Positions 3,241 through 21,330 of a DNA stretch of 64,000 nt are shown here, piece after piece. This DNA comes from Schmidtea polychroa (Eukaryota). The DNA is taken from contig CM097885.1 in the NCBI GenBank assembly GCA_044892525.1, positions 744,001 to 808,000 on the forward strand, in the 5' to 3' direction. The position numbers and the translations under genes were made by a program. A model generated the notes under the pieces. The model was not told where the DNA came from. It searched no databases and saw nothing but the letters and a program-made list of their open reading frames with translations. Within the stretch, counting starts at the first letter, position 1, and each line of letters starts with the position of its first letter.

Positions 3241-3431
3241 TTATATCGAGAATATTTAAACAAAGTAAAAGACTTTGAATAAATAGCCTCAATATTTGGA
3301 TTTATTAAATTAAAGATTTCATTTTTAAATTTTTTCAAATTAATTTTTGAAATATTAGGAATTAAAGATTTCCCAACTTCACCAATTCTGTTTTTGAGGA
3401 AATTGTGAAACTTTTTACTATGCTTTTTATC

Positions 3432-4730: not shown

Positions 4731-4976
4731 AGTAGTGAGGAATCTATGCACCCCAGCACCCCCACCCTCAAAAAAAACAGCGCTATTGACCCATATTTTC
4801 CACATTTATATGCTTTTTTACCCCATATTCTTCACTTTTTTTAACTTTTAAACTTTGTCCCCTATTGCCATTAACCCTTAATTTCTTCCCTTAATAGTAA
4901 AAAAGTTCGGAATAGATGTATTTATAGATTAGTAATTCCGAGAAAAGGTAACGGGGTGCATAGATTCCTCACTACT
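4731..4976. repeat. Terminal 246-bp unit bounded by a perfect 24-bp inverted repeat of the element terminus
   Basis: AGTAGTGAGGAATCTATGCACCCC at 4731-4754 and its exact reverse complement at 4953-4976. Confidence 0.95.
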
Positions 4977-5109
4977 TGGTCTTAAGGATTTAATGTTATA
5001 AGGATTTAATGTTATAAGAATATCAGATTACCTAATTCATAATGATCTAGGTCGCCTGATCACCTTAAGGTTTTGAAAGTTTTAAAAATAAAAAATTTTA
5101 TGAAATAGT

Positions 5110-5476
5110 AAAACTGCTCTGAGAGGACAGTGGTTTTTTTTTTTTTTTTTCACTGTCCTCTCAACAGTTTTTTTTTGATCCGGATCATTTTTTTTTATTC
5201 AACCTCTTTCGTTTATCAAATCTCTTCCAATATACAAGCTGGCCAGACTCATACATCAGAATCAATTCGATAATAGCAGCACACCTTATTATTCGCTTCT
5301 CGCTCGAATACGATTTCATCGGCGTTTTAAGTGTGCTGCTCGAAAGTACAAATGAATTCGAAAGCGAATCCGAAAGAGGTCCGAAAACAACTGAGAAATA
5401 AATGTGCACATTACCGGAATCGATCCAGGGGTGTTCGAAAGACAGGTGGCGATAATTACCGGTTCGCCACCATCAC
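5110..5476 (-). ncRNA. Putative Pol III tRNA-Asp-headed structured RNA (left TIR copy)
   Basis: A-box TGGCGAACCGG, tRNA-Asp-like GGTAATTATCGCCACCTGTC and B-box GGATCGATTCC, then nested stems and a 13-bp hairpin with an oligo-A loop; expression not shown. Confidence 0.45.
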
Positions 5477-5654
5477 CCGTTTCAATATTTTTTTTTTCAT
5501 ATTTATGTTTAAAAAATAATTAATTAATAAAAAAATAAAATAAAATAAAATAAATAAAATAAAATATACAAGTACTTTATAAATATAAGATACCCACACT
5601 ATTTTCAATATTATTTTCAAATTTTTAATATTATTTTATGTTGAAAAAAAACTA

Positions 5655-5726
5655 ACCTCAGATGTGATTTGAACCACTATCCATTTGAACCACTGTGCCA
5701 GTCTATTCCCACTGCGCCATCAAGGT
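5655..5726 (-). ncRNA. tRNA-like Pol III unit (left TIR copy)
   Basis: ACCTTGA-TGGCGCAGTGG (A-box) ... GGTTCAAATC (B-box) ... GAGGT, then an oligo-T terminator; 72 nt; no proper anticodon arm. Confidence 0.6.
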
Positions 5727-5973
5727 TTGAATTTTTGTCATTTTTTAGACTATAAATAATCGATTCAAGTTCTTTAACTCTTTCCTGTAATTGTTTCATT
5801 TTCTTCAATCTTATATCAGCAACATCTACAGCCTTCATATAAAAATGTCGATACTTTTCATTATCTACCATCAACTCTTTGATGTATTCTAATGGTTCTT
5901 CTTCTCTTCTTTTCATTCTCTTATGTTTAACTTCATTCAATTCATTTCTCATTCTTTCTTTTAACTCATCCAT
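5677..5973 (-). CDS. Small coiled-coil hypothetical Polinton protein
   Basis: 98-aa E/K/R-rich helical ORF in an AAAATG context; its 3' end runs into the TIR and overlaps the tRNA-like unit. Confidence 0.55.
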   Translation of the reverse strand: MDELKERMRNELNEVKHKRMKRREEEPLEYIKELMVDNEKYRHFYMKAVDVADIRLKKMKQLQERVKELESIIYSLKNDKNSNLDGAVGIDWHSGSNG

Positions 5974-6142
5974 TTTTATAAATATTTTTTTATTGGATAT
6001 ATTAATTTTTGGTAGCTTAAGTTAAAACGTTTTTGATCTTAAATTTCCAAGAGTTGCCGTTGACCAATCTCATTAAAAATTTGTACAAGTACTAAATCGA
6101 GTATGCTGATCAATATTTCGTTAAAAAAAATTTGAAAAAAAA

Positions 6143-6215
6143 TGACCGAAATGGGATTTGAACCCATTGGTATTGGCAATGCAGTCGAGTGCTATTACCA
6201 CTAAGCTATTAGAGC
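6143..6215 (-). ncRNA. tRNA-Cys(GCA)-derived Pol III unit / pseudo-tRNA
   Basis: TAGCTTAGTGG A-box; AGCACTCGACTGCA resembles the tRNA-Cys D-arm/anticodon region; perfect T-arm ATGGG-TTCAAAT-CCCAT; T8 terminator; acceptor and anticodon stems do not pair fully. Confidence 0.65.
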
Positions 6216-6384
6216 TATACTCAATATAAAATAAGTTGTTAATGTGTGACTATTTATTGATGAAATTAATAATTAATTATTCATTTTCTCGACAACTACC
6301 AGTCAGATCCATCTGAAAATTTAAATATATACTAAAATCAGTACGCTGAATCAGACTCCGTTGAAAAAAAATATCGATAAAAAT

Positions 6385-6457
6385 TGACCAAAATCGAAAA
6401 TTGAACCCGGTACTCCCGGTGATAAAATTGAAGCCTATTCCACTCCGCTATAATGGC
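6385..6457 (-). ncRNA. Degenerate tRNA-like Pol III unit, tandem paralogue of 6143-6215
   Basis: TAGCGGAGTGG A-box, GGGTTCAA partial B-box, T-run; its downstream flank is homologous to that of the 6143-6215 unit. Confidence 0.5.
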
Positions 6458-6513
6458 TTACATAATATATTTAATTAATCCTATTTTGTGTGTGTAAATT
6501 TTAATATATAAAA

Positions 6514-7806
6514 ATGAATAACATAAATCTTAAAATTCAAGAAAAAAATAAATTAAATCTTGATTATAATAAAGAATTTACTCATGAAATTAAAAAAAAT
6601 GATATTTTAAAAATCTCTCCAACTTCAGGATCTATTGCAAACTTAAATCGTAGGGGTGATATAGTTTTTCAATCTTTTCAAACATCAAACCCAATAGATA
6701 TTTGTAATGCCAAATTATATTACAAAGTAGAATTAGAAATTGAAGCAAACAAAGATATAACCCTAGAAAATAATTTCTTTCCAAATTTATTCTCCAACAT
6801 GAGATTAAAACTAAGATCATCAGAAATTGAAACTGTTTTGCATCCGGGAGTATATTCTACAATGTTAAATTTTATTTTGACTGGTTGTGATTATAAAAAC
6901 GAATATGGTGAATTAACAGGTTGGATTCCTGATGTTAATAAAGGAGATTTAGATAAAGATGGTTTAGATGTAAACCATGGTTACCATAAAAGAGCTGAAC
7001 TTTATAAATCTAAAAAATTTGAAGGTTATTTTGAATTAAAACACTTGTTTGGATTCCTTCAAAACTATAATCGCATACTTCATAATGTTTTTATAGAATT
7101 CATCTGTAATAGAGTAGAAGGTGATAAAAGATTGTTCTATGGAGCTGTAGATACAAAAGCTAAATTAAAATTATCAACACTTGAATTACATATACCTGAA
7201 TGGACATTAAACCCACATTCTGAGATTAAACTCCTTGAAAGATTAAATTCCAACAAGTCTATAAATGTAAATTATTTAAATAGAATCTGTAGTGAATTTA
7301 GTATGACAGAGGGTTCAACATATTCTATAAAGGTAGCAAATTTAGCATACCGACCAAGATATATCTTGATTGGATTCAAGGAAGTAGATTCATCTTTCCA
7401 AAAAAATAACAACTTGTTTATTCAAAAGATTGGAGTTGATAATTTAAAAACAATACAAATTCAATTAAATAGTTCTTATTATCCAATAAATAGAATGGAA
7501 TTTAATATTGAAAATAATGAAAACATATTCCCATATCTAAATTATATTGAAACATGTTATGATTTCAAAGTTGAACCGCAATTAAGTTTAGAAGATTTCA
7601 AAAATTTATATTCTATATTTTGTATAAATGTTTCAGACCAAGATGATTGCCTAGCCATAAATAATGTTGATGTTACACTTCATGTAACAAAGGATTCTAA
7701 TTTTAAAGCTAAAGTATATACATTAATATTAGAAGAAAAGAAAATAGAAATGAAATTATATGGTGGAAAGATTTCAATAATCGAAAATGTTAGGGGAGAT
7801 TCTTGA
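6514..7806 (+). CDS. Major capsid protein (double jelly-roll, hexon-like)
   Basis: 430 aa; Polinton MCP-type motifs ITLENNFFPNLFSNMRL, EIETVLHPGVYSTM, LFGFLQNYNRIL, RPRYILIGF, YSIFCINVS; element context. Confidence 0.85.
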   Translation: MNNINLKIQEKNKLNLDYNKEFTHEIKKNDILKISPTSGSIANLNRRGDIVFQSFQTSNPIDICNAKLYYKVELEIEANKDITLENNFFPNLFSNMRLKLRSSEIETVLHPGVYSTMLNFILTGCDYKNEYGELTGWIPDVNKGDLDKDGLDVNHGYHKRAELYKSKKFEGYFELKHLFGFLQNYNRILHNVFIEFICNRVEGDKRLFYGAVDTKAKLKLSTLELHIPEWTLNPHSEIKLLERLNSNKSINVNYLNRICSEFSMTEGSTYSIKVANLAYRPRYILIGFKEVDSSFQKNNNLFIQKIGVDNLKTIQIQLNSSYYPINRMEFNIENNENIFPYLNYIETCYDFKVEPQLSLEDFKNLYSIFCINVSDQDDCLAINNVDVTLHVTKDSNFKAKVYTLILEEKKIEMKLYGGKISIIENVRGDS

Positions 7807-7835
7807 TATAATCCCTGATATTTTAACATTTTAAA

Positions 7836-9218
7836 ATGTCTCTAAATAAATATTGGAGATGTGAAAGTTGTAATTGTCAAGTTACAAGACATCATAAAGC
7901 AAGTCATTTAAAAACTAAAAAACATACAGGAGGCGATCTACAATCTTCAAAAACAACATCTTCAATATTACAACCTTTTAGTACAGAAAAATATCCAGGT
8001 GAAAGACATTTATTTAAACACAACTACACCGGACCAGGAACAAGATTAGATATTAGATTAGATGAAAATAATAATCCCAAACAAGGAGAAGAACCAATAA
8101 ATAGAATTGATCAAGCAGCTTTAAAACATGACATTGCATACAATTCAACAAATCTTAGAGATAGACATGTTGCAGATGTGAATTTAATACATGATTTAAA
8201 TAGTATCCAAAATCCATCAACCCAAGAAAAGATTCAAAGAGCTCTAGTTAAATTAGCAATGAAAGGTAAGATTTTCATAGGCTTAGGACACAGTCCGATC
8301 ACCATGGGTGCAAGACTTCCTAGAATAGCAAAAGATGTTGCTTATAAAAAGATTATCGAACAAGCAGACATTGAAAGATCCCTTGAGAATATATCCAAGA
8401 CTAGTTTACAAACCCCAACAGAATCAGAAATAAAATATGCAAAGGAATTACACCATGAATTTAGAAAAAATAAAAAATATTTAAAAGTTCAAGTACATGA
8501 AAAAGATCAAACATGGTCTGCAGATTTAGTCTTTATGCCCAAATCATCAGACCCTGAAAAATATAAAATAATTTTAACTGTAATAGATTTATATACAAGA
8601 TTTGCTTTTGCAAGGTGTTTAGAAAATAAAACAGGATATTCTATTACAGAAGCATTTGAAAATATATTTGAAGAAAATCAAAGAATCCCAAAATATTTAT
8701 GGTGTGATAAAGGAACAGAATTTTATAACAAAGTTTTTACAAAGTTTTTAAATGAAAATGATATTAAATTATATTCAACAGAAAACGAAGGAAAAGCAGT
8801 CGTAGTTGAAAGATTAAATAGAACATTAAAAAATAAAATGTGGAAATATTTTACTGCTATTGGAAAACAAAAATGGAACAATGAATTGTTACAAAAGATT
8901 GTAAATGAATATAATAATGATGTACATAGTTCTATAAAATCAACACCTTTAAATGCTTCCTTGAATCCTTTGGAACTCATAAATCCTGTTGAAAATGATG
9001 TTATTGAAAAACCAAAGTTTAAAATTGGTGACCGAGTAAGAATATTTAAATATAAAAATAAATTTGAAAAAGGATTCACAGCAAAATGGACAAATGAAAT
9101 TTTTATTATAAATAAAATAAATTATACAACTCCAATAACATATAGCATCATTGATTTAAATAATGAAAAAATATTAGGTAGATTTTATAATAATGAGTTA
9201 CAGAAAACAGATTTCTAA
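7836..9218 (+). CDS. Zinc finger - parvovirus-type PLA2 - retroviral-like (rve) integrase fusion
   Basis: CESC...H...H zinc finger; HNYTGPGT ... PINRIDQAALKHDIAY (PLA2 Ca loop and HD dyad); integrase DDE in WSADL, CDKGTEF, VVERLNRTLK; PKFKIGDRVRI. Confidence 0.92.
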   Translation: MSLNKYWRCESCNCQVTRHHKASHLKTKKHTGGDLQSSKTTSSILQPFSTEKYPGERHLFKHNYTGPGTRLDIRLDENNNPKQGEEPINRIDQAALKHDIAYNSTNLRDRHVADVNLIHDLNSIQNPSTQEKIQRALVKLAMKGKIFIGLGHSPITMGARLPRIAKDVAYKKIIEQADIERSLENISKTSLQTPTESEIKYAKELHHEFRKNKKYLKVQVHEKDQTWSADLVFMPKSSDPEKYKIILTVIDLYTRFAFARCLENKTGYSITEAFENIFEENQRIPKYLWCDKGTEFYNKVFTKFLNENDIKLYSTENEGKAVVVERLNRTLKNKMWKYFTAIGKQKWNNELLQKIVNEYNNDVHSSIKSTPLNASLNPLELINPVENDVIEKPKFKIGDRVRIFKYKNKFEKGFTAKWTNEIFIINKINYTTPITYSIIDLNNEKILGRFYNNELQKTDF

Positions 9219-10006
9219 AACAAACTTTTCCATATTTCAGCTTCTTTTCTATCCAAATAAATATAATTATATTTTTCTTTCCAATGATTATCAACAAACA
9301 TATCAAACATATTCTTATCAGGTTCAACATTTGAAAATAAATCATTATAAATCATATTCTTATCACGGCGATCTAATTTAAAAAATATAAAACAATTGGA
9401 ATTATTTCTTATAGAGTTTTTATCTAAAGCATAATAAGTTTGAGATATATAAATAACATTACAATTATTATGTCTTCCTCTTGTAAAGTAACTCTTTTGA
9501 ATCTCTTGATTTTTCATGTTGACAACATCATCAAATATAACTAGATTCTTTTTATCTTTAGGAAGTAAATCACAATGTAAAACATCTTCAGGTTTATTAG
9601 AGAATAAAACTTGAATTGCCTCCTGCCCTTCTTCACAAATATAATCATTTTTATTACTAATATCTGATTCTAAAATCTTTTCCTTATACCAATCAACCAT
9701 ATCACAAGGTTGAAAAACTTCTTCAGGACACCTATGTTGATTTTTAAAAATATCAATTATTGCTTTTTTAGTTAATTTATTTTCAAATCCACATTTCAAA
9801 AGTTGTAATTCTGGTTGATTTATGGTTGTAGAATAAAAGATTAAATTATTATAATCTAAAAAATCATCTTCAAGTAACATTCTCAAAACAAGTACATTCT
9901 TTCCACATCCAGAAGAACCAACAATTAATAATCTAAAATTATCAGGAAATACTTTATTATTGAATTTACTCTTATGTCTATTTAAAATTGGTTTCCAAGT
10001 ATCCAT
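9215..10006 (-). CDS. A32/FtsK-like DNA packaging ATPase
   Basis: Walker A GSSGCGKN (atypical N), Walker B LVIFDD, FTRGRHNNCNVIYISQ, IRNN. Confidence 0.92.
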   Translation of the reverse strand: MDTWKPILNRHKSKFNNKVFPDNFRLLIVGSSGCGKNVLVLRMLLEDDFLDYNNLIFYSTTINQPELQLLKCGFENKLTKKAIIDIFKNQHRCPEEVFQPCDMVDWYKEKILESDISNKNDYICEEGQEAIQVLFSNKPEDVLHCDLLPKDKKNLVIFDDVVNMKNQEIQKSYFTRGRHNNCNVIYISQTYYALDKNSIRNNSNCFIFFKLDRRDKNMIYNDLFSNVEPDKNMFDMFVDNHWKEKYNYIYLDRKEAEIWKSLF

Positions 10007-10022
10007 TTTTATTTATTATAAA

Positions 10023-10601
10023 ATGACAACTGAAGAATCTTTGCAAGAATTAATATATTCAAATAAAAATAAATCAGTAGTAATTGATGGTAAAAAATAT
10101 TTTATTGGAAAACATGTAAAAGAACAAGTTAGAGCGAAGCTCCACGAAGCTAAAGAAGGTGGCATTCTTCCATTAGCTGCTTTAATACCTGCAATCATTG
10201 CTGGTTTATCAGGTGCTGCTGGAATAGCTGGAGGAATTGCAACTACAGTTCAAAAAGCTAAAGAATCTCAAAAGACAGACCTAGAAAAAGAAAAACTACA
10301 AACTGAAATCGATTCAATGAAGAAGGTAGGGCAAGCTAAAGGGGGAGTGTCCGTTGGAAAGGGTCTCTATCTTAATCCATATGAGGGGAGTCGGCAAAAG
10401 TCTCAGGGCAAAGGTCTCTATCTTGATCCTTATAAAGGTAGAGGTTTAAATGATTTTTTAAAAAATCAAATTTCTACATCTGAATCTTTATCTTCAAAAG
10501 ATAAAGAAGATTTAAAAAAAATATGTAAATCTTTAAAGAATGGATGCCTTTGTAAAACTAAAAATGGTAAAGGATTATACTTGAAGCCCTTCGAACTATG
10601 A
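10023..10601 (+). CDS. pX/cupiennin-like virion core or membrane-active protein
   Basis: GGILPLAALIPAIIAGLSGAAGIAGGIA amphipathic segment and three GKGLYL repeats; likely start is the AAAATG at 10023. Confidence 0.7.
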   Translation: MTTEESLQELIYSNKNKSVVIDGKKYFIGKHVKEQVRAKLHEAKEGGILPLAALIPAIIAGLSGAAGIAGGIATTVQKAKESQKTDLEKEKLQTEIDSMKKVGQAKGGVSVGKGLYLNPYEGSRQKSQGKGLYLDPYKGRGLNDFLKNQISTSESLSSKDKEDLKKICKSLKNGCLCKTKNGKGLYLKPFEL

Positions 10602-10623
10602 TACCATTTTTGATACCATTAAA

Positions 10624-11517
10624 ATGGTATATGAAGAAAGATTAGCACTTTTAAAAAAATTACAATCAGAACAAGATAAATATAATAAAAAAGATACAAC
10701 TCAACATGCTGAATCTATAATATTAAATGAGGTAATAACACAACAACAGGGGCCAACAATTAAAGCTATAAAAGAGTTGGAAGATTTCAATGAGCAAGCA
10801 AAATTTAAAGAGTTAGAAGATAAAAAACAAAAAATAAAAGAACTAGAGTGGCAGGAAAAAGAAAAAGAATCCACTGAAAATCATCCTGAAAGTCATTCTG
10901 AAAGAAATCAAAGAAAACGCAGAAGAATTTCTAATGTGGAAGAAGAAGAAATGTTTTTTAAAACAAAACCTCTTAAAGTTGATCCTAAAATTAGAGATGA
11001 TTTACCTCCTTCAATTAGACCCACATTTAATACTAATACTGAAGGATATCAAATAATAACAATTTATAAACAAAACTTTACTTTATATTCAAATTCAGAA
11101 AATAAATCACGTATTCATTCACAAAATGTTTATAATAATGAATATTTAGACTTTGAATTTACAGATGATTTTTATAGATTACTTTGTGGATATTCTTCAG
11201 GTGATGTTGAAGAAATTAAAAAATATTTAAATTTAATAAGATTAATAAGAGCTAGTTCTAAAGCAAAATATATTCAAGATTTAAAGAATTATTTAAATAA
11301 AAATGAAAAGGGTTATGTTGTTACAGAGGGAGAGGGATTAATTAGTGAAGGTGGTAAACCAAATCCCATCAATCTTTTTATTGAATTAAGAAAACTATTA
11401 GCTGCAAGGAAAGCAGGACATAATAATTTAGATTCTGATATTTTAAAGATTTCTAAAGATTTGTTAAAACAAGGAATAATTTCAAAAGATAAATTTAATA
11501 AGTATACGAAGTTATAA
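10624..11517 (+). CDS. Conserved Polinton hypothetical protein (GEG ... LLAARKAGHNN C-terminal motif)
   Basis: 297-aa ORF with an AAAATG start; C-terminal motif of a type seen in Polinton core proteins; function unknown. Confidence 0.65.
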   Translation: MVYEERLALLKKLQSEQDKYNKKDTTQHAESIILNEVITQQQGPTIKAIKELEDFNEQAKFKELEDKKQKIKELEWQEKEKESTENHPESHSERNQRKRRRISNVEEEEMFFKTKPLKVDPKIRDDLPPSIRPTFNTNTEGYQIITIYKQNFTLYSNSENKSRIHSQNVYNNEYLDFEFTDDFYRLLCGYSSGDVEEIKKYLNLIRLIRASSKAKYIQDLKNYLNKNEKGYVVTEGEGLISEGGKPNPINLFIELRKLLAARKAGHNNLDSDILKISKDLLKQGIISKDKFNKYTKL

Positions 11518-11539
11518 ATACGAAGTTTTAAAATACAAA

Positions 11540-12004
11540 ATGACTCCTTCAATATTAGATTTTTTAAAAACATTTGGAATAAATGCAAAAACAAATTTTG
11601 ATTTAAAAGATTATGCAAATTATTTAAATTTAAAAATTAAAATATTAATGAATGATGAATTATCAAGTCTGGAGAGTCCCCTGAATATAATAATCAATTA
11701 TCAAAATTCAAATGAAAAAGGATCTCATTGGGTTTGTATATATAAGAAATCTATCTACTTTGATTCTTTTGGGATTAAACCTACTAAAGAAGTTGAAGAT
11801 TATCTCTTGAGGGGTTCTCCGATTGATTCCCCAAATGGTTATACTTTTAACTCTTTACAAGTTCAACCTTTGAATACTAAAATATGTGGTATTTTAAGTT
11901 TATATGTTTTGTATAGATTGAATAAGGGAGAGGGAAAGGGGCATACGCAGGATTTTGAATCTATAATTCAAGAAATTTATAATGATCTAGAATCTCTACT
12001 ATAA
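11540..12004 (+). CDS. Adenain-like maturation cysteine protease
   Basis: GSHWVC (His), YFDSFG (Asp), QVQPLNTKICG (Gln/Cys). Confidence 0.92.
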   Translation: MTPSILDFLKTFGINAKTNFDLKDYANYLNLKIKILMNDELSSLESPLNIIINYQNSNEKGSHWVCIYKKSIYFDSFGIKPTKEVEDYLLRGSPIDSPNGYTFNSLQVQPLNTKICGILSLYVLYRLNKGEGKGHTQDFESIIQEIYNDLESLL

Positions 12005-12073
12005 GGATTTTTACTATAAGGATTTTTACTATAAAGATTTTTACTATAAGGATTTTTACTATATGAATTTACT
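11998..12073. repeat. 15-bp tandem repeat (ATAAGGATTTTTACT) x~5
   Basis: Directly visible between the protease and penton genes. Confidence 0.9.
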
Positions 12074-12121
12074 ACTAAAGAAATGGAGCTTCACAACCCT
12101 CCGGAAGATAATTTAAAAAAA

Positions 12122-12847
12122 ATGGTAAACATAATGTAAGATAAATATTCAAGAACTTTATCTATAAATTCAAAAGAATCAGAGTTTACTATAAACTTTC
12201 AAGATTCAATTAAATTAGATCAAAATTTAAATTATGAATTGGGGCTATTATGGTTTTGTGCTTATAATACTATTTTTAATATAACTAAAGATAATAATAA
12301 ATTTACTATTCAAACTCGTGATGGGCATAAACCAGAAATTATAACAATAGAACCTGGGGCATATGAGATAAAAGATTTAAATGATATACTTTCTAAAAAA
12401 ACAAATGAAGGTATTAAAATTAAAATGGATATACCAACTTCAAAATGTGTAATGACTTTGAAGAATTTAAAAATTAGTTTTTTAGATAATTGTTTCTTTC
12501 ACACAGTTTTAGGATTTAAACCTATGGATATAACAATAAAAGAAGATAAAGTAATAACATCAGAAAATATTATAAAAATAATAAATACAAACCCAATAAA
12601 TATTCATTGTGATTGTATAACAGGTTCTTATAATAATGGTAAACAAACAAATGTTTTATATTCCTTTCCCTCAAACACAGTTCCTATGGGATATAAAATA
12701 GTTGAAAGAATGAATCCTCCAAATTATTTACCTTTATGTAGAAAATATATAATGGATATTAATTTTAAAATTCTTAATCAAGAAGGAGAATTGATTGATT
12801 TTAATGGAGAAGAGATTTCAATGTATTTACATTTGAAACAGGTTTGA
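12122..12847 (+). pseudogene. Minor capsid protein (penton) with an in-frame TAA at codon 6
   Basis: ATG at 12122 is in frame: MVNIM*DKYSRTLSINSKESEFTINFQDSIKLDQNLNYELGL...IHCDCITGSY...YLPL...NQEGELIDFNGE; stop at 12137-12139. Confidence 0.8.
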
Positions 12848-12871
12848 AGATTCATTTTAAATTATTAATAA

Positions 12872-13882
12872 ATGAGTTCTTATATTCCTTGTAATAGAGG
12901 TGGTGGAACAATAAAAACAGGGTTTAATACAGAAGAAATATTAACTTTAACAGAAAATAAATATATTAATGAAAGAGGTGATTCAATGAAGGGTGATTTA
13001 ATTTTAAATGGACACAAGATAAAAGAATTATCTTTTCCAACTGATGAAGCTGATGCAGTTAATAAGAAATATGTAGATGGTGTTAAAAAATATACTGATT
13101 TAACAACAACAAGAATTGAAAGTTCATTAACAACAAAAATTGATTCAATGGTATCAAAGCTTAATAATATCGAACAACGATTTAATGATAAATTTGACAA
13201 GTTACAAAGTCTGTTAACTGAACAAGTTGTAAAGTTAAATACTGCTATATTAAATTCTAAAGATAAACAAATTATGAATACTAAATTTAATACAATATAT
13301 AATATAATAAATGAGATGATTACATCATTTAATAAAAGAATTTCAAATTTAGAGTCTCATGGAACACACATTAACACCACACATAGTATTAGAAAAAGAG
13401 CTGCTGAATTAGAACAGAATAAAACATTATTACCCCATACATATAAACATTTTATAGAACCAAGTTTAATAACAACAAACAGTAAAGAATGGGGTGTTTT
13501 TATGGTTTTAAAAATTATTGATCCTTATTTCTTTTTGTTTGATGATGATAATGAAAGAATGAAATGGTTTGTGAAATGTGATTATAATAGTAAGCTTGAA
13601 AAGGGTGATGTTATAATGACTAGTTATGATTTACCACACGGAGATTGGTATGTTAATACTCATTCACATGGACTACATAAAGTTAAAAGTAAGAATATTC
13701 ATTTTTCTAGTTCACTTGTACAATATATAGATTTAATATTTTATGTAAAAAAGGTTGATGTTGATGAAGTTCGTAAAGCATTGAGAGAATTGTATAAAGA
13801 TATCCTCTCAACAAGAGTTTCTTTTGATATCCGAGCATTGGTGCCAGATGGTGCTCAGAAGAATAAAGTCTTATTTTTTTAA
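12872..13882 (+). CDS. Fibre/adhesin-like virion protein
   Basis: GDSMKGDLILNGHKIKEL..P....DAVNKKYVD tail-fibre/YadA-stalk-like motif, followed by a coiled coil and a globular C-terminus. Confidence 0.6.
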   Translation: MSSYIPCNRGGGTIKTGFNTEEILTLTENKYINERGDSMKGDLILNGHKIKELSFPTDEADAVNKKYVDGVKKYTDLTTTRIESSLTTKIDSMVSKLNNIEQRFNDKFDKLQSLLTEQVVKLNTAILNSKDKQIMNTKFNTIYNIINEMITSFNKRISNLESHGTHINTTHSIRKRAAELEQNKTLLPHTYKHFIEPSLITTNSKEWGVFMVLKIIDPYFFLFDDDNERMKWFVKCDYNSKLEKGDVIMTSYDLPHGDWYVNTHSHGLHKVKSKNIHFSSSLVQYIDLIFYVKKVDVDEVRKALRELYKDILSTRVSFDIRALVPDGAQKNKVLFF

Positions 13883-13890
13883 TTATTAAA

Positions 13891-14502
13891 ATGGAAGAAG
13901 TAAGAGAAGAAAAAATTTACCCCGAATTGAGATCATCAGGATATTATTCCGAAGGTCACAAAGGTTCCAAGGCCTCGGCTCCCACAGAACTTGAAATTAT
14001 GAGAGTAAAAGAATTTAAATCAGAAACCTTACATTTACAAGATTTATTAAAGCATTATAAAAAAATTAAAAATAGATGGAAGAAAGGGAATACAGTTTTA
14101 AAAGTTATAGGTTATTCTTTAGGATTTGCATCTGCAATATTAACAGTTATTTTACCCATAACTTTACCAGTTGTTACTCTTGCACCTGTAATACTTGGAA
14201 GTATTTCTGTGGCTGATGGTTTCTTAACTGAAATAGTTTCATTATCTTATACTTCTAAAAAGAAAAATTTATATAGAGAAGTTTGTTTATCAATAGAATT
14301 AGGAATCTCTAAATTATTTTTATTTCAATTAAAAGCTTTGGAAGATGGAATCCTGACAGACGAAGAAATAATGAAATCAAATCAAATAATACAAGATATA
14401 AAGAATGAGGTTATAAGATTAAAAAGGGAGGACATGGTGGCTAATGTTATAAGTAATAAAAAAACATCTCGAGAAAAATGGTTAAAGAATTCTTACTTAT
14501 AA
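13891..14502 (+). CDS. Membrane protein (possibly the adintovirus GasderminX-like family)
   Basis: Central hydrophobic hairpin and KALEDGILTDEE motif; family assignment from recall, not from a search. Confidence 0.55.
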   Translation: MEEVREEKIYPELRSSGYYSEGHKGSKASAPTELEIMRVKEFKSETLHLQDLLKHYKKIKNRWKKGNTVLKVIGYSLGFASAILTVILPITLPVVTLAPVILGSISVADGFLTEIVSLSYTSKKKNLYREVCLSIELGISKLFLFQLKALEDGILTDEEIMKSNQIIQDIKNEVIRLKREDMVANVISNKKTSREKWLKNSYL

Positions 14503-15298
14503 AATGGGTGTATTTTTAAAAAAGTAGATCAGGTTGCTATAGTTGCTTAAATTAATTGTCGACATTTTATTATTAAAAAATTAAATATCGTTGGTTTCAG
14601 TTATGGTTGAAAGTCAACCTATGAATCATTAATTTATGATCTTTAAATTCTTTATCACTTAGACCTTTTATATATTTAAGTTCTAAACATATAGGATTAA
14701 AAACTTGAGAATATAAAGGTTTCCCGATTTCTCTCTCGGGATAAATAATTTCAACATTATAAATATCAAGATCAGTAATCTTTGTATCATATAACTTATT
14801 CAACTTTTCTAGATTTTTTATTATAGGGACGAAGAAATAATGAAATCAAATCAAATAATACAAGATATAAAGAATGAGGTTATAAGATTAAAAAGGGAGG
14901 ACATGGTGGCTAATGTTATAAGTAATAAAAAAACATCTCGAGAAAAATGGTTAAAGAATTCTTACTTATAAAATGGGTGTATTTTTAAAAAAGTAGATCA
15001 GGTTGCTATAGTTGCTTAAATTAATTGTCGACATTTTATTATTAAAAAATTAAATATCGTTGGTTTCAGTTATGGTTGAAAGTCAACCTATGAATCATTA
15101 ATTTATGATCTTTAAATTCTTTATCACTTAGACCTTTTATATATTTAAGTTCTAAACATATAGGATTAAAAACTTGAGAATATAAAGGTTTCCCGATTTC
15201 TCTCTCGGGATAAATAATTTCAACATTATAAATATCAAGATCAGTAATCTTTGTATCATATAACTTATTCAACTTTTCTAGATTTTTTATTATAGGGA
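14359..15298. repeat. 469-bp tandem duplication spanning the convergent gene ends
   Basis: 14359-14829 repeated at 14828-15298 with a GA microhomology; explains the spurious ORF 14597..14803. Confidence 0.93.
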
Positions 15299-18200
15299 TT
15301 AAATTATTTCCAATAGGTAGAGTTGTCTTTAAATCACTTAGTATGAATCTTTTATCATCATAATTTGATAATGATACTTTTTGAGATTCTATCAAGTGAA
15401 TATCATGGTTTTCACTTTTAAGTTGATGTATTTCATCAATTTTATCTTTATGATTTGGATTCAATGTATCTATATAATCTTGATGAGAAAGATTCTTTGC
15501 CACCACTCTCTGTATTCCTTTACATCTGTTATCCTTTACAGGTTTTTCTTCTTTAGGAAATATAGGATATCTATGTGTAATGGTTTCTTCTGTTTCTGGA
15601 GTTTTAAATATAAATGATCTAGTTATAAATTCAGGGTTTCTAAATGTTTCGTATGAATATTGTTTAGCACGAATAAATATTCCATTTTCTATAGGAGTAA
15701 AAGGTTTTTCATCTTTAAACGAAAATAGTTCTCCAGATGAATTTATTAAATTTGAAAGTATAGGATTTTCTTTCATATCTTTTTGTAAATCATGAGTTCT
15801 TATTGTTAAAAACATTGAATCTGTATCCATTGCATGCATTGATATATTTGCTCCGTATATAGGTTGTAAGATGTTATAATATGTTTCATACATTTGTAAT
15901 TTTGAAAGTTCTAAAATTGTAAACCCTATAAATATTGGTTTGTTATATGTTTTCTCATAATTTTTTAATTCTACTGCAGTAAGATTTTCAGAAAATACTT
16001 GTGCGTTTTTAAATGTAGGCTTTCCTTGCATGCGATTATAACGCTTAATATCTTTGGTAGTATTTGTTAGGAGTTCAATATGAGTATATTTATCAACATT
16101 CTCCATTGTTTTCCCAAAGACTGAATTGTTTAAAATTTTATAATTATTATCTTTAAAAAGGTTACCTTCTCTTTTTGCAATGTTTCGACACCTAATGTTC
16201 TCCTCGATAAAAGCTTTCATGAATGGAGCTTGTTTAAATCTTATGACACTATGAACTTTTTTTAATATCATTCCTCGTGAGAGATAAAATTGGAGGAGTC
16301 TATAGTGACAAAGATAAAACCTTCGATCTGTTTGATCACAAAGAAGTTTCATTGTTGGAGGTTTATCTTGTGAGATTTGCCATTCAGAAAGTTCGTTGAT
16401 ATCAATCTTTCTTCTTATGGGAGCTAAAGGAAAATATCTTGTTCCTGATTTTATATCATCTGGATAGTCGAGGTCACATTCTATAAAGTAACCTATTGGA
16501 GAATCTTTCGATGTTGAAAGTATTTCTTTCATAAGGTTATCTGTTGGGTTCTCTATTTCAGTGAAATCACTCATTGGTAAATATTGAGTCATAATTCCTG
16601 AATATAAAGCTGTTGCATCTATATAAAGTATAAATATAGGATTTTTCATTGTTTCTAATAATTCTTTTAATTCCTCATTGTTAATTTTCATATATGGATC
16701 ATCAGGGTGTTTAGATAGTCTTCGGCTAGTAGTTATTGCATTTCTAGCTTTTATTTCTCTATTCCCCATTACTGAAGAGACTCCTCCTCTAATGTTTGTT
16801 TTAATTTGGTTAAACATATCGAGGTTAGTTAAAAGATCTATAATTTTATCAGCATCTTCTATATTTGAAGTCCAAATGGTATATAACATAGTATCCCAAG
16901 CTAAAGAGGGTGCAGTTATATAATTATAGGGTTTAAGAACAAAAGATTTTGTAAATTCTTCAAAGCAATCTGCTAGAATATAAACATCCAAGGATAAATA
17001 CATACTTGTATATTCTCCTAAAGTTTTACACTTGAATAATTCCCACATTTTATTTGCTCGAGAATATTCTTGATTTGTAATATGATTTTTTTGAAGTTGT
17101 GAATAGAAATCTTCTAGGCTAGGAAGACTTGTTTCATTATATCTTTCAAACGAGTCAACATAGTCATAAGGATATATTCCTTTTGCTAAACATGTAGGAT
17201 ATTCTTCTAGAGGAATATTATTTTTTTCCAAGAATTCTCCAGTGATTTTAAAATTTTCTGCTTTCATTGTTTTTGCTACTGCATCTAAAGACATTTGGAG
17301 AAAGTTTAACGAGTCTATAAATTTTAATTTTCCATATTCAATTGATTTATATTTTTCCTTTGTTAAGCCGATAACTTTGAAAGAGTTTTTAGCATTTGCT
17401 GCGAGGTGTTTAATAAATAGATGTATGTCATATCCAAAAAGATTATGAAATATAACAGGTATAAATTTAGGAGTATGGCAATTAAGATTGCAATTTTTAT
17501 GAGCTGCTCCTTGATAATTATTTTCCTTTTTTAAATGATCATGATCTATAACTTTTTCATCAGGAAGAATATTCTGTTTACACATCCAACAGTTGGAAGT
17601 ATTTTCATATTCTTGTTGTTGTTGATTAGAAATATTTTGAGGATACTTTGTTTTTAATATTTTAAATATTTCATGTTCTAGATCATTTATATTTTTAGTA
17701 AAATGATTCAAGACTTCTTCAGGGGTACCTCCTAGAATTGAATATTCTCTAGATTCTATGAGTTCAGGATAATTACTTTTAAATAATAATTTATAAGCAG
17801 ATGATAATTGATTAGTTTTTTTAACACTATTAGGTTTATTTCTTTTTCTTAGAAAGGCTTTCATCCTCTCTGGTTTCATCTTCTCTCCTGAGGAGTTCCA
17901 TGAATCCATGAGTTTATTTTTTTCTATTATTTTTAAATATTGATAAACCAAATCTTGTTTATGGTTTATAGATTCAAAGTCACCATAAAGAACTCCAACT
18001 GTTTGTAGTAAATTTGAAAAGTTTTTAAAATACATCTTGGGATTATTAGGCATTTTAATTAAAGCTGGATCATCTTTTTCACAAAATCTTGTATGTTTAA
18101 TCATAGAGTTTTTAGTTGTTGAATAATGAAGACATCTTTTACATGTTCCTCCTCCACTAGTTGGATTCTCTGGAGATGTAAAAGCTTGAAAGTTTTTTAT

Positions 18201-19346
18201 TAAAACATAATGTTGATTATTTTCTTGTTCCAAGATTAAAAGATATATCTCGTTGTCCTGTGCTCCGTTATCCTTGGTTCCACTATCTGAAATATAAATT
18301 GGAATAATTTCTTTCCCTATAACATGTTCATAAATATTAAGTTTAAGATTATTTAAACTTTCAAATTCTGGAATGTCTTCTAGTTTCATTGAGTGTTTGA
18401 ATCCTTTGGGAAATATTAATTCATTTTCATATTGTTTGTATTTTGAAACTCTTTGGGGATTTGTTGCTTGAGGATGTAAATGTGCAAGTATTGACCAGAT
18501 GAAACATTTGTTATCATTATTCTGTACATTTATAACATTTTTATATTTAAAGGGTGTAGGAATATAAGATTTAGGATTGGGTGGTAATCCTCTCCAATAA
18601 TCAATCACTAAAGTTTGGAAAGAGTTGAATACTAAGTTTGAATCTCCTAATTCATTTTCTACTTCCTCTTGTTTTGCTTCTGCTGCTTTAATTATTTCTT
18701 TGATGGTTTTATCAAATCCTTTAATTGAAAATAAATATTTAAAAGGTATTCCAATTTCAACATCTAAGGGTGTTGTCTTTTCTTCTGCTCCTCGCCAGTA
18801 TTTTGCTTTGATTATAATTTTATATTTTATAACATTATACCTTGTCGGTTTATAATTTTTTAAAGCTTCAGTGAAAGAATTTTTAATATTTTTTTTATTT
18901 TTATTTATATATTCTCCAGGAGTTGCAGGCCCATTAATTTTTAATTGAAATTCATCTATATGATTAAAATTATCCCAGTTATATTTTTCTCTTTCAACAT
19001 GATCAGGTTCTCCTTCTGAATGACATTCCTCATCGTCAGAATTTTGTTTTTTATTTTTACATTCTTTTATATGTTCTAAATAATAGAAATTTAGTTTTGT
19101 TGAAAAGTTACAATGAGGACATGTAAATATTTCTCTATTTTTCCCGATACAATTTTCAAAATGTTTATTATATCCAGAATGTAGAAATCTTCCTTGACAT
19201 TTAGGACAAAGTTTTGAATTTGTATCATTAAGATTATTTTCTTTTAATAAATGAGCTTTCGATTTTAAGTGAGAAATTAATCCAGTTTTATTTTTAAAAA
19301 CTTCATTTTTAGAAAAAAATTTTTTATTGGATACCCTGTTTTCATT
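15066..19346 (-). CDS. Protein-primed family B DNA polymerase with N-terminal zinc fingers and an endonuclease VII-like region
   Basis: YGDFE, FHNLFGYD, KGIYPYDY, YIDATALY, KILNNSVFGKT, MDTDS, KGI; my translation shows the frame stays open from 19346 (CPKC, CPHC fingers) with no in-frame ATG upstream of 18608. Confidence 0.93.
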   Translation of the reverse strand, partial: NENRVSNKKFFSKNEVFKNKTGLISHLKSKAHLLKENNLNDTNSKLCPKCQGRFLHSGYNKHFENCIGKNREIFTCPHCNFSTKLNFYYLEHIKECKNKKQNSDDEECHSEGEPDHVEREKYNWDNFNHIDEFQLKINGPATPGEYINKNKKNIKNSFTEALKNYKPTRYNVIKYKIIIKAKYWRGAEEKTTPLDVEIGIPFKYLFSIKGFDKTIKEIIKAAEAKQEEVENELGDSNLVFNSFQTLVIDYWRGLPPNPKSYIPTPFKYKNVINVQNNDNKCFIWSILAHLHPQATNPQRVSKYKQYENELIFPKGFKHSMKLEDIPEFESLNNLKLNIYEHVIGKEIIPIYISDSGTKDNGAQDNEIYLLILEQENNQHYVLIKNFQAFTSPENPTSGGGTCKRCLHYSTTKNSMIKHTRFCEKDDPALIKMPNNPKMYFKNFSNLLQTVGVLYGDFESINHKQDLVYQYLKIIEKNKLMDSWNSSGEKMKPERMKAFLRKRNKPNSVKKTNQLSSAYKLLFKSNYPELIESREYSILGGTPEEVLNHFTKNINDLEHEIFKILKTKYPQNISNQQQQEYENTSNCWMCKQNILPDEKVIDHDHLKKENNYQGAAHKNCNLNCHTPKFIPVIFHNLFGYDIHLFIKHLAANAKNSFKVIGLTKEKYKSIEYGKLKFIDSLNFLQMSLDAVAKTMKAENFKITGEFLEKNNIPLEEYPTCLAKGIYPYDYVDSFERYNETSLPSLEDFYSQLQKNHITNQEYSRANKMWELFKCKTLGEYTSMYLSLDVYILADCFEEFTKSFVLKPYNYITAPSLAWDTMLYTIWTSNIEDADKIIDLLTNLDMFNQIKTNIRGGVSSVMGNREIKARNAITTSRRLSKHPDDPYMKINNEELKELLETMKNPIFILYIDATALYSGIMTQYLPMSDFTEIENPTDNLMKEILSTSKDSPIGYFIECDLDYPDDIKSGTRYFPLAPIRRKIDINELSEWQISQDKPPTMKLLCDQTDRRFYLCHYRLLQFYLSRGMILKKVHSVIRFKQAPFMKAFIEENIRCRNIAKREGNLFKDNNYKILNNSVFGKTMENVDKYTHIELLTNTTKDIKRYNRMQGKPTFKNAQVFSENLTAVELKNYEKTYNKPIFIGFTILELSKLQMYETYYNILQPIYGANISMHAMDTDSMFLTIRTHDLQKDMKENPILSNLINSSGELFSFKDEKPFTPIENGIFIRAKQYSYETFRNPEFITRSFIFKTPETEETITHRYPIFPKEEKPVKDNRCKGIQRVVAKNLSHQDYIDTLNPNHKDKIDEIHQLKSENHDIHLIESQKVSLSNYDDKRFILSDLKTTLPIGNNLIPIIKNLEKLNKLYDTKITDLDIYNVEIIYPEREIGKPLYSQVFNPICLELKYIKGLSDKEFKDHKLMIHRLTFNHN

Positions 19347-19412
19347 TTATTTTTTAAGATTTATATTATTCATTTTTTATAATAAAAATTTAAAAAATGA
19401 CAAAAAATCCAA

Positions 19413-19484
19413 ACCTTGATGGCGCAGTGGGAATAAACTGACACAGTGGTTCAAAATGCTAGCGGTTCAAATCACATCTGAGGT
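19413..19484 (+). ncRNA. tRNA-like Pol III unit, diverged tandem copy just inside the right TIR
   Basis: TGGCGCAGTGG A-box, GGTTCAAATC B-box, T9 terminator; part of a ~215-bp tandem duplication with the 19627 unit. Confidence 0.6.
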
Positions 19485-19626
19485 TAGTTTTTTTTTCAAC
19501 ATAAAATAATATTGAAAATTGTGTGGGTATCTTATATTTATAAAGTACTTGTATATTTTATTTTATTTATTTTATTTTATTTTATTTTTTTATAAATTAA
19601 AAATTAAAAAAATGACAAAAATTCAA

Positions 19627-19698
19627 ACCTTGATGGCGCAGTGGGAATAGACTGGCACAGTGGTTCAAATGGATAGTGGTTCAAATCACATCTGAGGT
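19627..19698 (+). ncRNA. tRNA-like Pol III unit (right TIR copy)
   Basis: Identical to 5655-5726; A-box, B-box, oligo-T. Confidence 0.6.
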
Positions 19699-19876
19699 TA
19701 GTTTTTTTTCAACATAAAATAATATTAAAAATTTGAAAATAATATTGAAAATAGTGTGGGTATCTTATATTTATAAAGTACTTGTATATTTTATTTTATT
19801 TATTTTATTTTATTTTATTTTTTTATTAATTAATGATTTTTTAAACATAAATATGAAAAAAAAAATATTGAAACGG

Positions 19877-20246
19877 GTGATGGTGGCGAACCGGTAATTA
19901 TCGCCACCTGTCTTTCGAACACCCCCGGAACGATTCCGGTAATGTGCACATTTATTTCTCAGTTGTTTTCGGACCTCTTTCGGATTCGCTTTCGAATTCA
20001 TTTGTACTTTCGAGCAGCACACTTAAAACGCCGATGAAATCGTATTCGAGCGAGAAGCGAATAATAAGGTGTGCTGCTATTATCGAATTGATTCTGATGT
20101 ATGAGTCTGGCCAGCTTGTATATTGGAAGAGATTTGATAAACGAAAGAGGTTGAATAAAAAAAAAATGATCCGGATCAAAAAAAAACTGTTGAGAGGACA
20201 GTGAAAAAAAAAAAAAAAAAAACCACTGTCCTCTCAGAGCAGTTTT
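19877..20246 (+). ncRNA. Putative Pol III tRNA-Asp-headed structured RNA (right TIR copy)
   Basis: A-box 19884-19894; B-box variant GGAACGATTCC 19927-19937; stems 19973-19982/20142-20151, 20013-20022/20069-20078, 20043-20048/20058-20063, 20191-20203/20224-20236. Confidence 0.45.
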
Positions 20247-20625
20247 ACTATTTCATAAAATTTTTTATTTTTAAAACTTTCAAAACCTTAAGGTGATCAG
20301 GCGACCTAGATCATTATGAATTAGGTAATCTGATATTCTTATAATATTAAATCCTTATAACATTAAATCCTTAAGACCAAGTAGTGAGGAATCTATGCAC
20401 CCCGTTACCTTTTCTCGGAATTACTAATCTATAAATACATCTATTCCGAACTTTTTTACTTTTAAGGGAAGAAATTAAGGGTTAATGGCAATAGGGGACA
20501 AAGTTTAAAAGTTAAAAAAAGTGAAGAATATGGGGTAAAAAAGCATATAAATGTGGAAAATATGGGTCAATAGCGCTGTTTTTTTTTAGGGTGGGGGTGC
20601 TGGGGTGCATAGATTCCTCACTACT

Positions 20626-21330
20626 CGCGTCTTTTTCAAATTCGATTGTTATTCCGAATTGAATTTTGACGGAGCCTAATTCGTTAATAATATCTCGTAA
20701 TTTTATTATTAGTTGTTCAGGAAATATTATTTCTTTTATATTTAAGTTGCTTGTATTTAAGCCTAATATTTGATGGGTACCTCTTAAATCTCTTTGTACT
20801 GTCGGTACATTTCCACCTATTTGTATTATATTTAATCCATCCCAAGAATCAAAAGAAGTGAATAATCCATCATTGGATTCAACAACCAATCCGACCTGGC
20901 ATTCAACAAAAGGCAATCCGACCTGGGATTCAACAAAAGGCAATCCGACCTGGGATTCAACAAAAGACAATCCGTCCTGGGATTCAACAACCAATCCATC
21001 ATTGGATTCAACAAAAGACAATCCGACCTGGAATTCAACAAAAGACAATCCAGCCTGGGATTCAAAATCTAATCCGACCTGGGATTCAAAAGAAGAAGTA
21101 TCTAATTTAATTTTTTAATTGTATTATTTTTTTCTATAGTTGAGGGTCTTTTAAAAACACTATCTTTTTTAAAATTAAACCTATCTAAATGATTTTTATG
21201 TTTATTATAAAAAACGCTATATGTTACAGGGTCACTAGTCTTACATACAGGACATATAAAATAAGTTTTATTATAATATTTTTTCGTGTAATAATTCTCC
21301 ATTATAGAATGGCAATTATTATCATGTTCT
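20626..21330 (-). pseudogene. Older Polinton pPolB gene, 5' part upstream of the nested insertion
   Basis: Reads ...KIQFGITIEFEKD, continuous with 4730 downward as shown by the uninterrupted copy at 60650-61158; N-terminal CPVC finger (21102..21302). Confidence 0.75.
20860..21090. repeat. 24/27-bp minisatellite (VESQVGLPF-type repeat in the old pPolB frame)
   Basis: About nine units of AATCCGACCTGGGATTCAACAAAAG(G/A)C and shorter variants. Confidence 0.9.

Follow-up and report, generated by a model that had tools for sequence, protein, structure and literature searches.

What kind of unit is the strongly structured stretch of about 370 nt that lies, once in each terminal inverted repeat (TIR), in a mobile element of Schmidtea polychroa? 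We examined it within a 64,000-nucleotide stretch of contig CM097885.1 (hereafter the window), in which the unit occupies positions 19877-20246. A first-pass annotation had likened its architecture to adenoviral VA RNA or EBER and to the tRNA-miRNA transcripts of gammaherpesviruses, with a captured SINE or a single-stranded DNA replication signal as alternatives. From sequence and predicted folding, we describe the unit as a candidate for a real, selected, tRNA-headed structured RNA gene within an array of Pol III-type cassettes belonging to a Polinton.

The carrier element

The element that holds the unit is 15.9 kb long and has long TIRs, AG-type termini and a 6-bp target duplication, and Pfam searches returned the gene set of a Polinton, i.e., a protein-primed PolB, an rve integrase, a packaging ATPase and a double-jelly-roll (DJR) capsid. 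Its main features are as follows.

4731-20625, plus strand: Polinton/Maverick element carrying the cassettes (termini AGTAGT; 6-bp flanks match at 5/6 positions)
4731-5746, minus strand: left TIR, partner of 19607-20625
19607-20625, plus strand: right TIR, 1019 bp, 99.1% identical to 4731-5746
6514-7806, plus strand: DJR major capsid protein gene (Pfam PF21738, E 4e-26)
7836-9218, plus strand: integrase gene with an rve domain (Pfam PF00665) and, in the same ORF, a phospholipase A2-like (PLA2-like) domain (Pfam PF08398)
9215-10006, minus strand: A32-like packaging ATPase gene (Pfam PF04665)
15066-18389, minus strand: protein-primed DNA polymerase B ORF (DNA_pol_B_2, Pfam PF03175)

Several further observations concern the element itself. 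The terminal 24 bp recur in inverted orientation at the inner edge of the outer 245 bp of each TIR (4731-4978 and 20380-20625), which allows each end to fold back on itself. In older copies of this Polinton, the match to the window ends at about 5059/20297 and the outer ends differ. An exact 470-bp tandem duplication (14359-15298) lies at the junction between the last rightward ORF and the 3' end of the polymerase, and is single-copy in another element (L061). The insertion site is a repeat with a PolB-like N-terminal ORF fragment (3930-4730, 20628-20779 and 60245-61179), a repeat with at least 40 copies, many of them clustered at this contig end. Capsid relatives at 72-74% were found, and when two of these were used to search the genome, all matches belonged to the window's own Polinton family; the viral contigs searched yielded no capsid relative, and the exact head motif of the cassette was not found in the metagenome contigs searched.

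The long cassette

The unit, which we call the long cassette, and its parts are located as follows.

19877-20246, plus strand: long Pol III cassette, right copy, with a predicted RNA of 370-390 nt ending at T4 (20243-20246) or T6 (20261-20266)
5110-5476, minus strand: long Pol III cassette, left copy, inside the left TIR
19877-19950, plus strand: tRNA-Asp-like head (A box 19884-19894, B box 19927-19937), not a cloverleaf
19973-20151, plus strand: multibranch body, with a closing stem (19973-19982/20142-20151) followed by three arms
19982-19999, plus strand: arm 1 of the body
20013-20024/20067-20078, plus strand: arm 2 stem, with a variable apex
20081-20139, plus strand: arm 3, a 25-bp G-U-rich hairpin and the best conserved part (57/59 identical in the diverged lineage L090)
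20167-20178, no strand assigned: 12-bp palindrome between the A10 and A9 tracts, kept in L090
20184-20246, plus strand: terminal hairpin with an oligo-A loop and T4 (at least 12 A in the loop in 58/67 copies)

Every motif that had been named for the right TIR is present there, and the second copy proposed for the other TIR lies on the minus strand at 5110-5476, within the 1019-bp, 99.1% identical repeats. In the body, ACCTCTTTCG (19973-19982) pairs with CGAAAGAGGT (20142-20151) to form the closing stem, and AGCAGCACAC (20013-20022) pairs with GTGTGCTGCT (20069-20078) in arm 2. A 13-bp terminal hairpin with a 19-A loop follows at 20187-20236, and the RNA strand of the cassette carries A10, A9 and A19 tracts. 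The cassette is indeed a CpG-rich island in an AT-rich element, with a GC content of 40% vs 27% and a CpG observed/expected ratio of 1.42 vs 0.52 (cassette vs element). The word TTTCG occurs five times within 100 nt (19913-20012), compared with 21 times in the whole element on both strands. A second 12-bp palindrome (19941-19952) stands directly after the B box, and a 17-nt deletion runs across it in two copies (L042 and L045). A search for 12-nt matches between the cassette and the coding interior of the element gave none except one A-rich word, and thus there is no sign of an antisense self-target.

The tRNA-like head

The resemblance of the head to tRNA-Asp held up: the head aligns without gaps to the host tRNA-Asp(GTC) with a score of 47-50, whereas none of 300 shuffles exceeded 37-41. 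The two have in common the GG of the D loop, the T loop, and GTC together with the 5' side of the anticodon arm. The A and B boxes stand at tRNA spacing, with a gap of 43. Because the comparison covered tRNA-Asp(GTC) as the one isotype, using a host gene from a 398-bp tandem array, and because short cassettes of the same element (see below) reach scores of 35-45 against it, with gaps, we regard "Asp" as likely rather than proven. The host tRNA-Asp(GTC) genes themselves lie in long 398-bp tandem arrays (C1:157.87-157.94 Mb, L087), with 1727 motif matches genome-wide.

Nevertheless, the head is not a cloverleaf. ARAGORN called 0 genes in it, folding did not predict a cloverleaf (head z -1.4), and the Rfam tRNA model (RF00005) gave no hit in the cassette at E up to 10, whereas the host tRNA-Asp scores 58 bits. 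Relaxing the ARAGORN threshold to 70% yields 54 gene calls across the element, an uninformative result. The Rfam search of the cassette returned only chance hits far below gathering, and no family. SRP covariance models likewise gave no hit to the cassette at E up to 10; as a detection control, a partial 7SL head elsewhere in the genome (L089) hits RF00017 at E 1.3e-5. Two candidate identities were rejected, i.e., a 7SL Alu domain for the head, for which there was no SRP hit, and a miR-15 seed for arm 2, for which mir-15 gave E 2-7. VA RNA has paired GGGU/ACCC tetranucleotides in its central domain. Two folds (that of the head segment and that of L090) show a GGGU/ACCC pairing at the head's base and not in a central domain; four-letter matches of this sort are common.

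An array of seven Pol III-type cassettes

A scan of the element for paired A and B boxes gave seven matches with a gap of 43-44, each facing the nearest terminus: three on the plus strand at the right end (A boxes at 19420, 19634 and 19884) and four on the minus strand at the left end (A boxes at about 6450, 6208, 5719 and 5469). The box patterns were tuned after the sequence had been seen; with them, shuffled elements gave a mean of 0.05 matches and a maximum of 1 (60 shuffles), and the part of the window outside the element gave 0 matches with a gap of 43-44. In addition to the two long copies, the array consists of the following short cassettes.

19413-19496, plus strand: short tRNA-like cassette (A box 19420, gap 44, T9)
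19627-19709, plus strand: short tRNA-like cassette in the right TIR (A box 19634, gap 44, T8)
5644-5726, minus strand: short tRNA-like cassette in the left TIR (A box 5719, gap 44, T8)
6135-6215, minus strand: short tRNA-like cassette with a perfect 5-bp T arm, in a region 83% identical to a host macrosatellite unit
6380-6457, minus strand: short tRNA-like cassette directly upstream of the capsid gene

Between the A box and the B box, the alignment of the five distinct cassettes is gap-free. About 13 nt past the B box, the short cassettes have a run of T8-9, whereas in the long cassette the run at this place is interrupted, which makes read-through likely. An internal T4 of the long cassette (19966-19969), present in 69/72 copies and equal in length to the terminal T4, could stop most long-cassette transcripts early. 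Genome-wide, the short-cassette pattern has 4383 matches.

The cassette at 6135-6215, which may resemble tRNA-Cys, sits in a region (6009-6299) that is 83% identical to a 1245-bp macrosatellite unit (L088) and is probably captured host DNA. The same unit also matches window positions 55939-56281, close to fragments (about 57640-57970) that are presumably 28S-like rDNA.

Folding and strand

Compared with dinucleotide shuffles, the cassette folds better than 100 of 100 on each strand (z -7.8 plus, -6.5 minus), and it is the lowest-energy 375-nt tile among 42 across the element. The high minus-strand score is largely due to the perfect terminal hairpin, which inflates both strands; with this hairpin removed, the rod has z -5.4 on the plus strand vs -2.4 on the minus strand, and the core has z -4.9 vs -1.4 (60 shuffles each). 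The first-pass annotation had also pointed to extra pairings that need G-U in the plus orientation, and such pairs make up 18/117 of the plus fold vs 7/110 of the minus fold, and 10/72 of the confident pairs. The assignment of the strand rests on this folding and on promoter direction, not on the variant-pairing test described below.

The shape of the fold had been described as a long rod of nested stems. The stems are there, but instead of a simple rod the body has three arms that meet in a multibranch junction, and the third arm (20081-20139) had been overlooked. In the predicted fold, the head and the tail of the cassette RNA fold separately from each other.

Copies, variants and conservation of the fold

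The exact head motif is found at 2731 places in the 781-Mb genome, and its reversed control at 0. Fetched copies were counted with the window itself (L001) left out, together with two loci that are the same places as others (L031 = L016 and L069 = L014); L040 contained no match. A B-box-like motif is recognisable in 70/72 fetched copies, and the terminal hairpin with T4 is present in 69/72; at one position of the B box, the right copy of the window differs from 70/72 rows. In 68/69 copies, no internal T run exceeds 4. The absence of T5 is a weak sign of Pol III, given that 201/580 GC-matched windows lack T5 as well.

In the variant test, 73 alignments from the fetched loci were scored at the 144 positions with a pair probability of at least 0.8. 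Variants found in at least 5 copies keep pairing in 8/9 cases, vs 4/16 for private variants (Fisher P 0.003), and at a threshold of at least 2 copies pairing is kept in 10/15 (Fisher P 0.024). These P values overstate the effect because variants are inherited, and the test draws on about seven independent inherited events among sequences that are 85-100% alike. A placement null, which cannot score compensated pairs, gave a P of about 0.005. When the same variants are scored by the minus-strand rule, 7/9 keep pairing, and thus the test does not fix the strand.

At the level of single pairs, a two-sided change at 20195/20232 is present in 24/72 rows, with A-C in 4/72 rows. At 20021/20070, there is a two-sided change in 7 rows and G-U in 15 rows; counted genome-wide, this pair is G-C in 586 copies, G-U in 761 and the pair-breaking A-C in 165, the last of which looks like an amplified mismatched subfamily. 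In arm 1, 14 rows carry a variant with which the closing pair no longer forms. Common variants also disrupt pairing in the T arm, and the A and B boxes are conserved.

The deep comparison is with one diverged copy (L090, 85% identical overall). Identity is 94.5% in the rod, 96.6% in arm 3 and 96.1% in the tail, i.e., in the downstream parts, and 78.7% in the head, 85.8% in the AT spacer and 82.4% in the short cassette, i.e., in the upstream parts. L090 keeps both boxes and the A tracts, and its hairpin around the B box is changed on both sides. It folds better on the plus strand (-95.8 vs -79.7) and has two pair-breaking changes, in arms 2 and 3.

As for covariation among copies, which had been suggested as a check, changes that keep pairing are present between sub-lineages, but the independent events are few. 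That selection during Polinton propagation kept the fold is supported by these sequence comparisons, and we consider it quite probable that the cassette is a selected structured Pol III RNA gene.

Genomic context of the copies

A captured SINE had been offered as one alternative. The sample, about 2% of all copies, consisted of 58 with an upstream flank of 300 nt or longer. Of these, 0/58 lie outside Polinton sequence; the flank contains the short cassette in 54 and Polinton interior in the remaining 4. Eighteen of the 58 came from 16 loci that had been picked mostly as unpaired hits, i.e., as the best SINE candidates. The marks of a tRNA-derived SINE, namely dispersed copies with their own target duplications and an A tail, were not found among these copies.

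In its broader form, this alternative makes the unit a passenger, either a captured SINE or a host Pol III RNA gene hitch-hiking in the TIR, with a structure inherited from a host ancestor. Polintons here do capture host pieces (one short-cassette region is 83% identical to the host macrosatellite), L089 has its 7SL hit to RF00017 (E 1.3e-5), and about 2700 copies would be enough to conceal a single-copy source gene of the host. Nevertheless, we hold a passenger to be quite unlikely, given that 58/58 flanked copies lie in Polinton sequence, that the pairing-preserving changes arose among Polinton sub-lineages, and that no Rfam family was matched.

The second alternative, a replication signal, can be set against a young subfamily of the element. 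In its members (L037-L039 and L060-L063), the left 10.5 kb is about 96% identical to the window's element, the polymerase region is about 72% identical and the right TIR is short; the top 40 copies are near 100% alike. This subfamily is a module swap between Polinton lineages. Its right end is only about 375 bp long and lacks the cassette in 7/7 elements, and on the left the cassette is kept in 3/4 ends examined. A loss at one end argues against a signal needed at both ends, whereas a gene with a diffusible product can be lost in this manner. The cassette is probably not a SINE, and a replication origin is unlikely.

Similarly, the hairpins might act as DNA, either single-stranded during excision, replication or packaging, or as protein-binding sites in the duplex, with the tRNA likeness as a relic. 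Their location in the TIRs would suit such a role, as would the similar energies of the DNA folds of the two strands (-64.4 and -58.8), the two 12-bp palindromes and the five TTTCG repeats. A clean deletion of arm 2 in an old copy (L009) also indicates that the hairpins can form in DNA. Given the missing right-end cassette of the near-identical young elements (7/7), the dependence on G-U pairs (10/72 confident pairs) and the intact Pol III boxes and terminators, we judge a DNA-level role to be quite unlikely.

Comparison with known systems

The likeness to VA RNAs and to the TMERs of murine gammaherpesvirus MHV68 stands as far as Pol III promoter layout and clustering at the ends are concerned, and the six further A/B-box cassettes that flank the unit make it stronger than had been seen; in size and fold, however, the unit fits neither family. 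In the sections available of two papers, the MHV68 TMERs are described as tRNA-like Pol III genes clustered at the genome end, with a leaky stop after the head, hairpins beyond it and a T run to finish (PMC4337559, PMC4378190). The Polinton also has a tRNA-like Pol III-type cluster at its ends (four cassettes left, three right), and the long cassette is predicted to have the same order of tRNA-like head, leaky stop after it, downstream hairpins and T-run end. It differs from the TMERs in that a tail is present in only one of its five distinct cassettes, that the head lacks a cloverleaf fold, and that the tail, instead of one or two free pre-miRNA hairpins, has three arms around a junction, with A tracts; moreover, the unit is 370 nt long and lies in both TIRs of an integrating element. 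Release by RNase Z, as in TMERs, is doubtful for a head that does not form a cloverleaf. In size, arm 3 (59 nt) and the terminal hairpin resemble pre-miRNA hairpins, but arm 3 is set within the junction, and Rfam miRNA hits were far below gathering. With about 25 bp, counted from the junction, arm 3 is short for a canonical Drosha substrate.

VA RNA is described, in the accessible portion of one account, as having intragenic boxes A and B, a proposed tRNA origin, a T4 with read-through to a second terminator, and a length of about 160 nt, and VA RNAs are said there to act as a decoy or substrate for Dicer and Exportin-5 (PMC7589676). VA RNA is built of a terminal stem, an apical stem and a central domain, and as an abundant Pol III transcript it binds PKR, Exportin-5 or Dicer. 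Polintons are akin to adenoviruses according to an excerpt of another paper (PMC11161782). The unit shares with VA RNA the intragenic boxes, the T4 terminator with a second terminator beyond it, strong structure, and a carrier with protein-primed PolB and a capsid. Unlike VA RNA, it is more than twice as long, its ends do not pair into a terminal stem, it has no Rfam VA hit, and it sits in terminal repeats.

Foamy viruses and BLV have Pol III miRNA cassettes, those of simian foamy virus lying within the terminal repeats, according to the part consulted of PMC4378190. These too are Pol III hairpin genes in an integrating element, but they are short retroviral precursors of one or two hairpins, in contrast to the tRNA-length head and branched 280-nt body of the Polinton unit. 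In the same portion of that source, Pol III non-coding RNAs are rare among animal viruses, occurring in adenoviruses, gammaherpesviruses and some retroviruses (PMC4378190), and in the available text of a paper on adintoviruses tRNA comes up a single time, in connection with other viruses (PMC8502044). In the open papers searched, we found no description of a Pol III RNA in a Polinton.

Possible roles of the cassette

For the role of the long unit, we favour, at a little under an even chance, a Pol III gene that the Polinton built from a captured tRNA gene and that acts in trans as a silencing decoy or source of small RNAs. A captured tRNA gene, most like tRNA-Asp, would have given rise to the long cassette and been kept in the end-located tRNA-like array. 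TFIIIC and Pol III would recognise the internal A and B boxes, as they do in established tRNA-type promoters. The short cassettes would stop at T8-9, and the long one would probably read on to the T4/T6 at 20243-20266, yielding an RNA of 370-390 nt and perhaps an early-stop form of ~90 nt that ends at the internal T4. The RNA would fold into the three-armed junction and the oligo-A-loop terminal hairpin, a fold that selection appears to have kept. It may act in trans, since one copy per element suffices, and by analogy it could be an abundant double-stranded decoy or a small-RNA precursor. As VA RNA does, such a decoy might occupy the host Dicer/Exportin-5/Argonaute machinery and so ease silencing of the element. 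Granted a selected Pol III RNA gene, the odds of the decoy or small-RNA role, drawn from these analogies, appear evenly balanced. More tentative is the wider idea, also by analogy, that Polintons possess a VA/TMER-like system of their own, in which the tRNA-derived array and the 370-nt RNA, produced by thousands of copies in the genome, would serve as a counter-defence against silencing and help account for the spread of the Polinton family in this genome.

tRNA genes can act as chromatin barriers, and the cassettes might likewise work in cis, as TFIIIC/Pol III barriers or nucleosome-free zones against heterochromatin, with the RNA as a by-product. The clustering of seven promoter-type cassettes at both ends would agree with this, as would the conservation of the boxes despite common variants that break T-arm pairing, and the 4383 genome-wide matches to the short-cassette pattern. 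Polintons are targets of piRNA/H3K9me3 in planarians according to the passages seen of PMC8532177, and a cis effect is left open for TMERs too in the portion available of PMC4337559. For the long cassette we think this unlikely, in that it leaves unexplained the 280 nt past the promoter, which are better conserved than the head and keep their pairing. The short cassettes, however, may well serve as cis barriers.

A further reading retains the Pol III RNA and makes it a translation modulator. Rodent BC1 RNA has a tRNA-derived Pol III head, A-rich tracts and a unique 3' hairpin, and is the product of a single-copy host gene that spawned SINEs. The Polinton unit resembles it in the tRNA-derived head, the A-rich tracts and the 3' hairpin, and differs in being element-borne and in having an extra branched domain. 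In a BC1/BC200-like role, the oligo-A loop and the tracts would bind poly(A)-binding protein and favour the element. The A10, A9 and A19 tracts on the RNA strand, the loop of at least 12 A in 58/67 copies and the retention of the A tracts in L090 are consistent with such a role; however, homopolymer lengths drift without selection, and it is the G-U-rich arm 3, not the A tracts, that is best conserved. We therefore rate a translation modulator as improbable.

Should the RNA be expressed, Polintons would have a non-coding gene product, which would be evidence of virus-like handling of host RNA pathways and would parallel, or even point to, the origin from tRNA that has been proposed for VA RNA. 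With about 2700 gene copies, it could also be a major unannotated host RNA and could affect RNAi experiments in this host.

Contigs over the cassette in other runs

Among the runs that contain this stretch, none is recorded as RNA; 11 are guessed to be RNA and 4 carry no label. Four runs, chosen together with this stretch and of guessed RNA nature, were compared as contigs over 4731-6900. In one of them (X1), the summed contig depth, a measure that cannot rank parts, is 3000-11000 over 5169-5460, 0 over 4731-5022, 3-80 over most of 5753-6482 and 240-1136 over the capsid gene. At the first A tract, three X1 contigs terminate in a run of A. The shape of this depth is what a discrete transcript would give; given the limits of contig depth, the way the runs were chosen and the guessed RNA nature of X1, we do not count it as evidence.

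Contigs under three other organism labels (X4, X5 and X9), in runs likewise selected with this stretch, cover the cassette, and some are less than 90% alike. At a loose end in X5 (window 5341), two contigs appear by eye to have a shorter hairpin in place of arm 2 (agreement 0.72), and the stem of this replacement hairpin, again judged by eye, is kept largely by G-U pairs.
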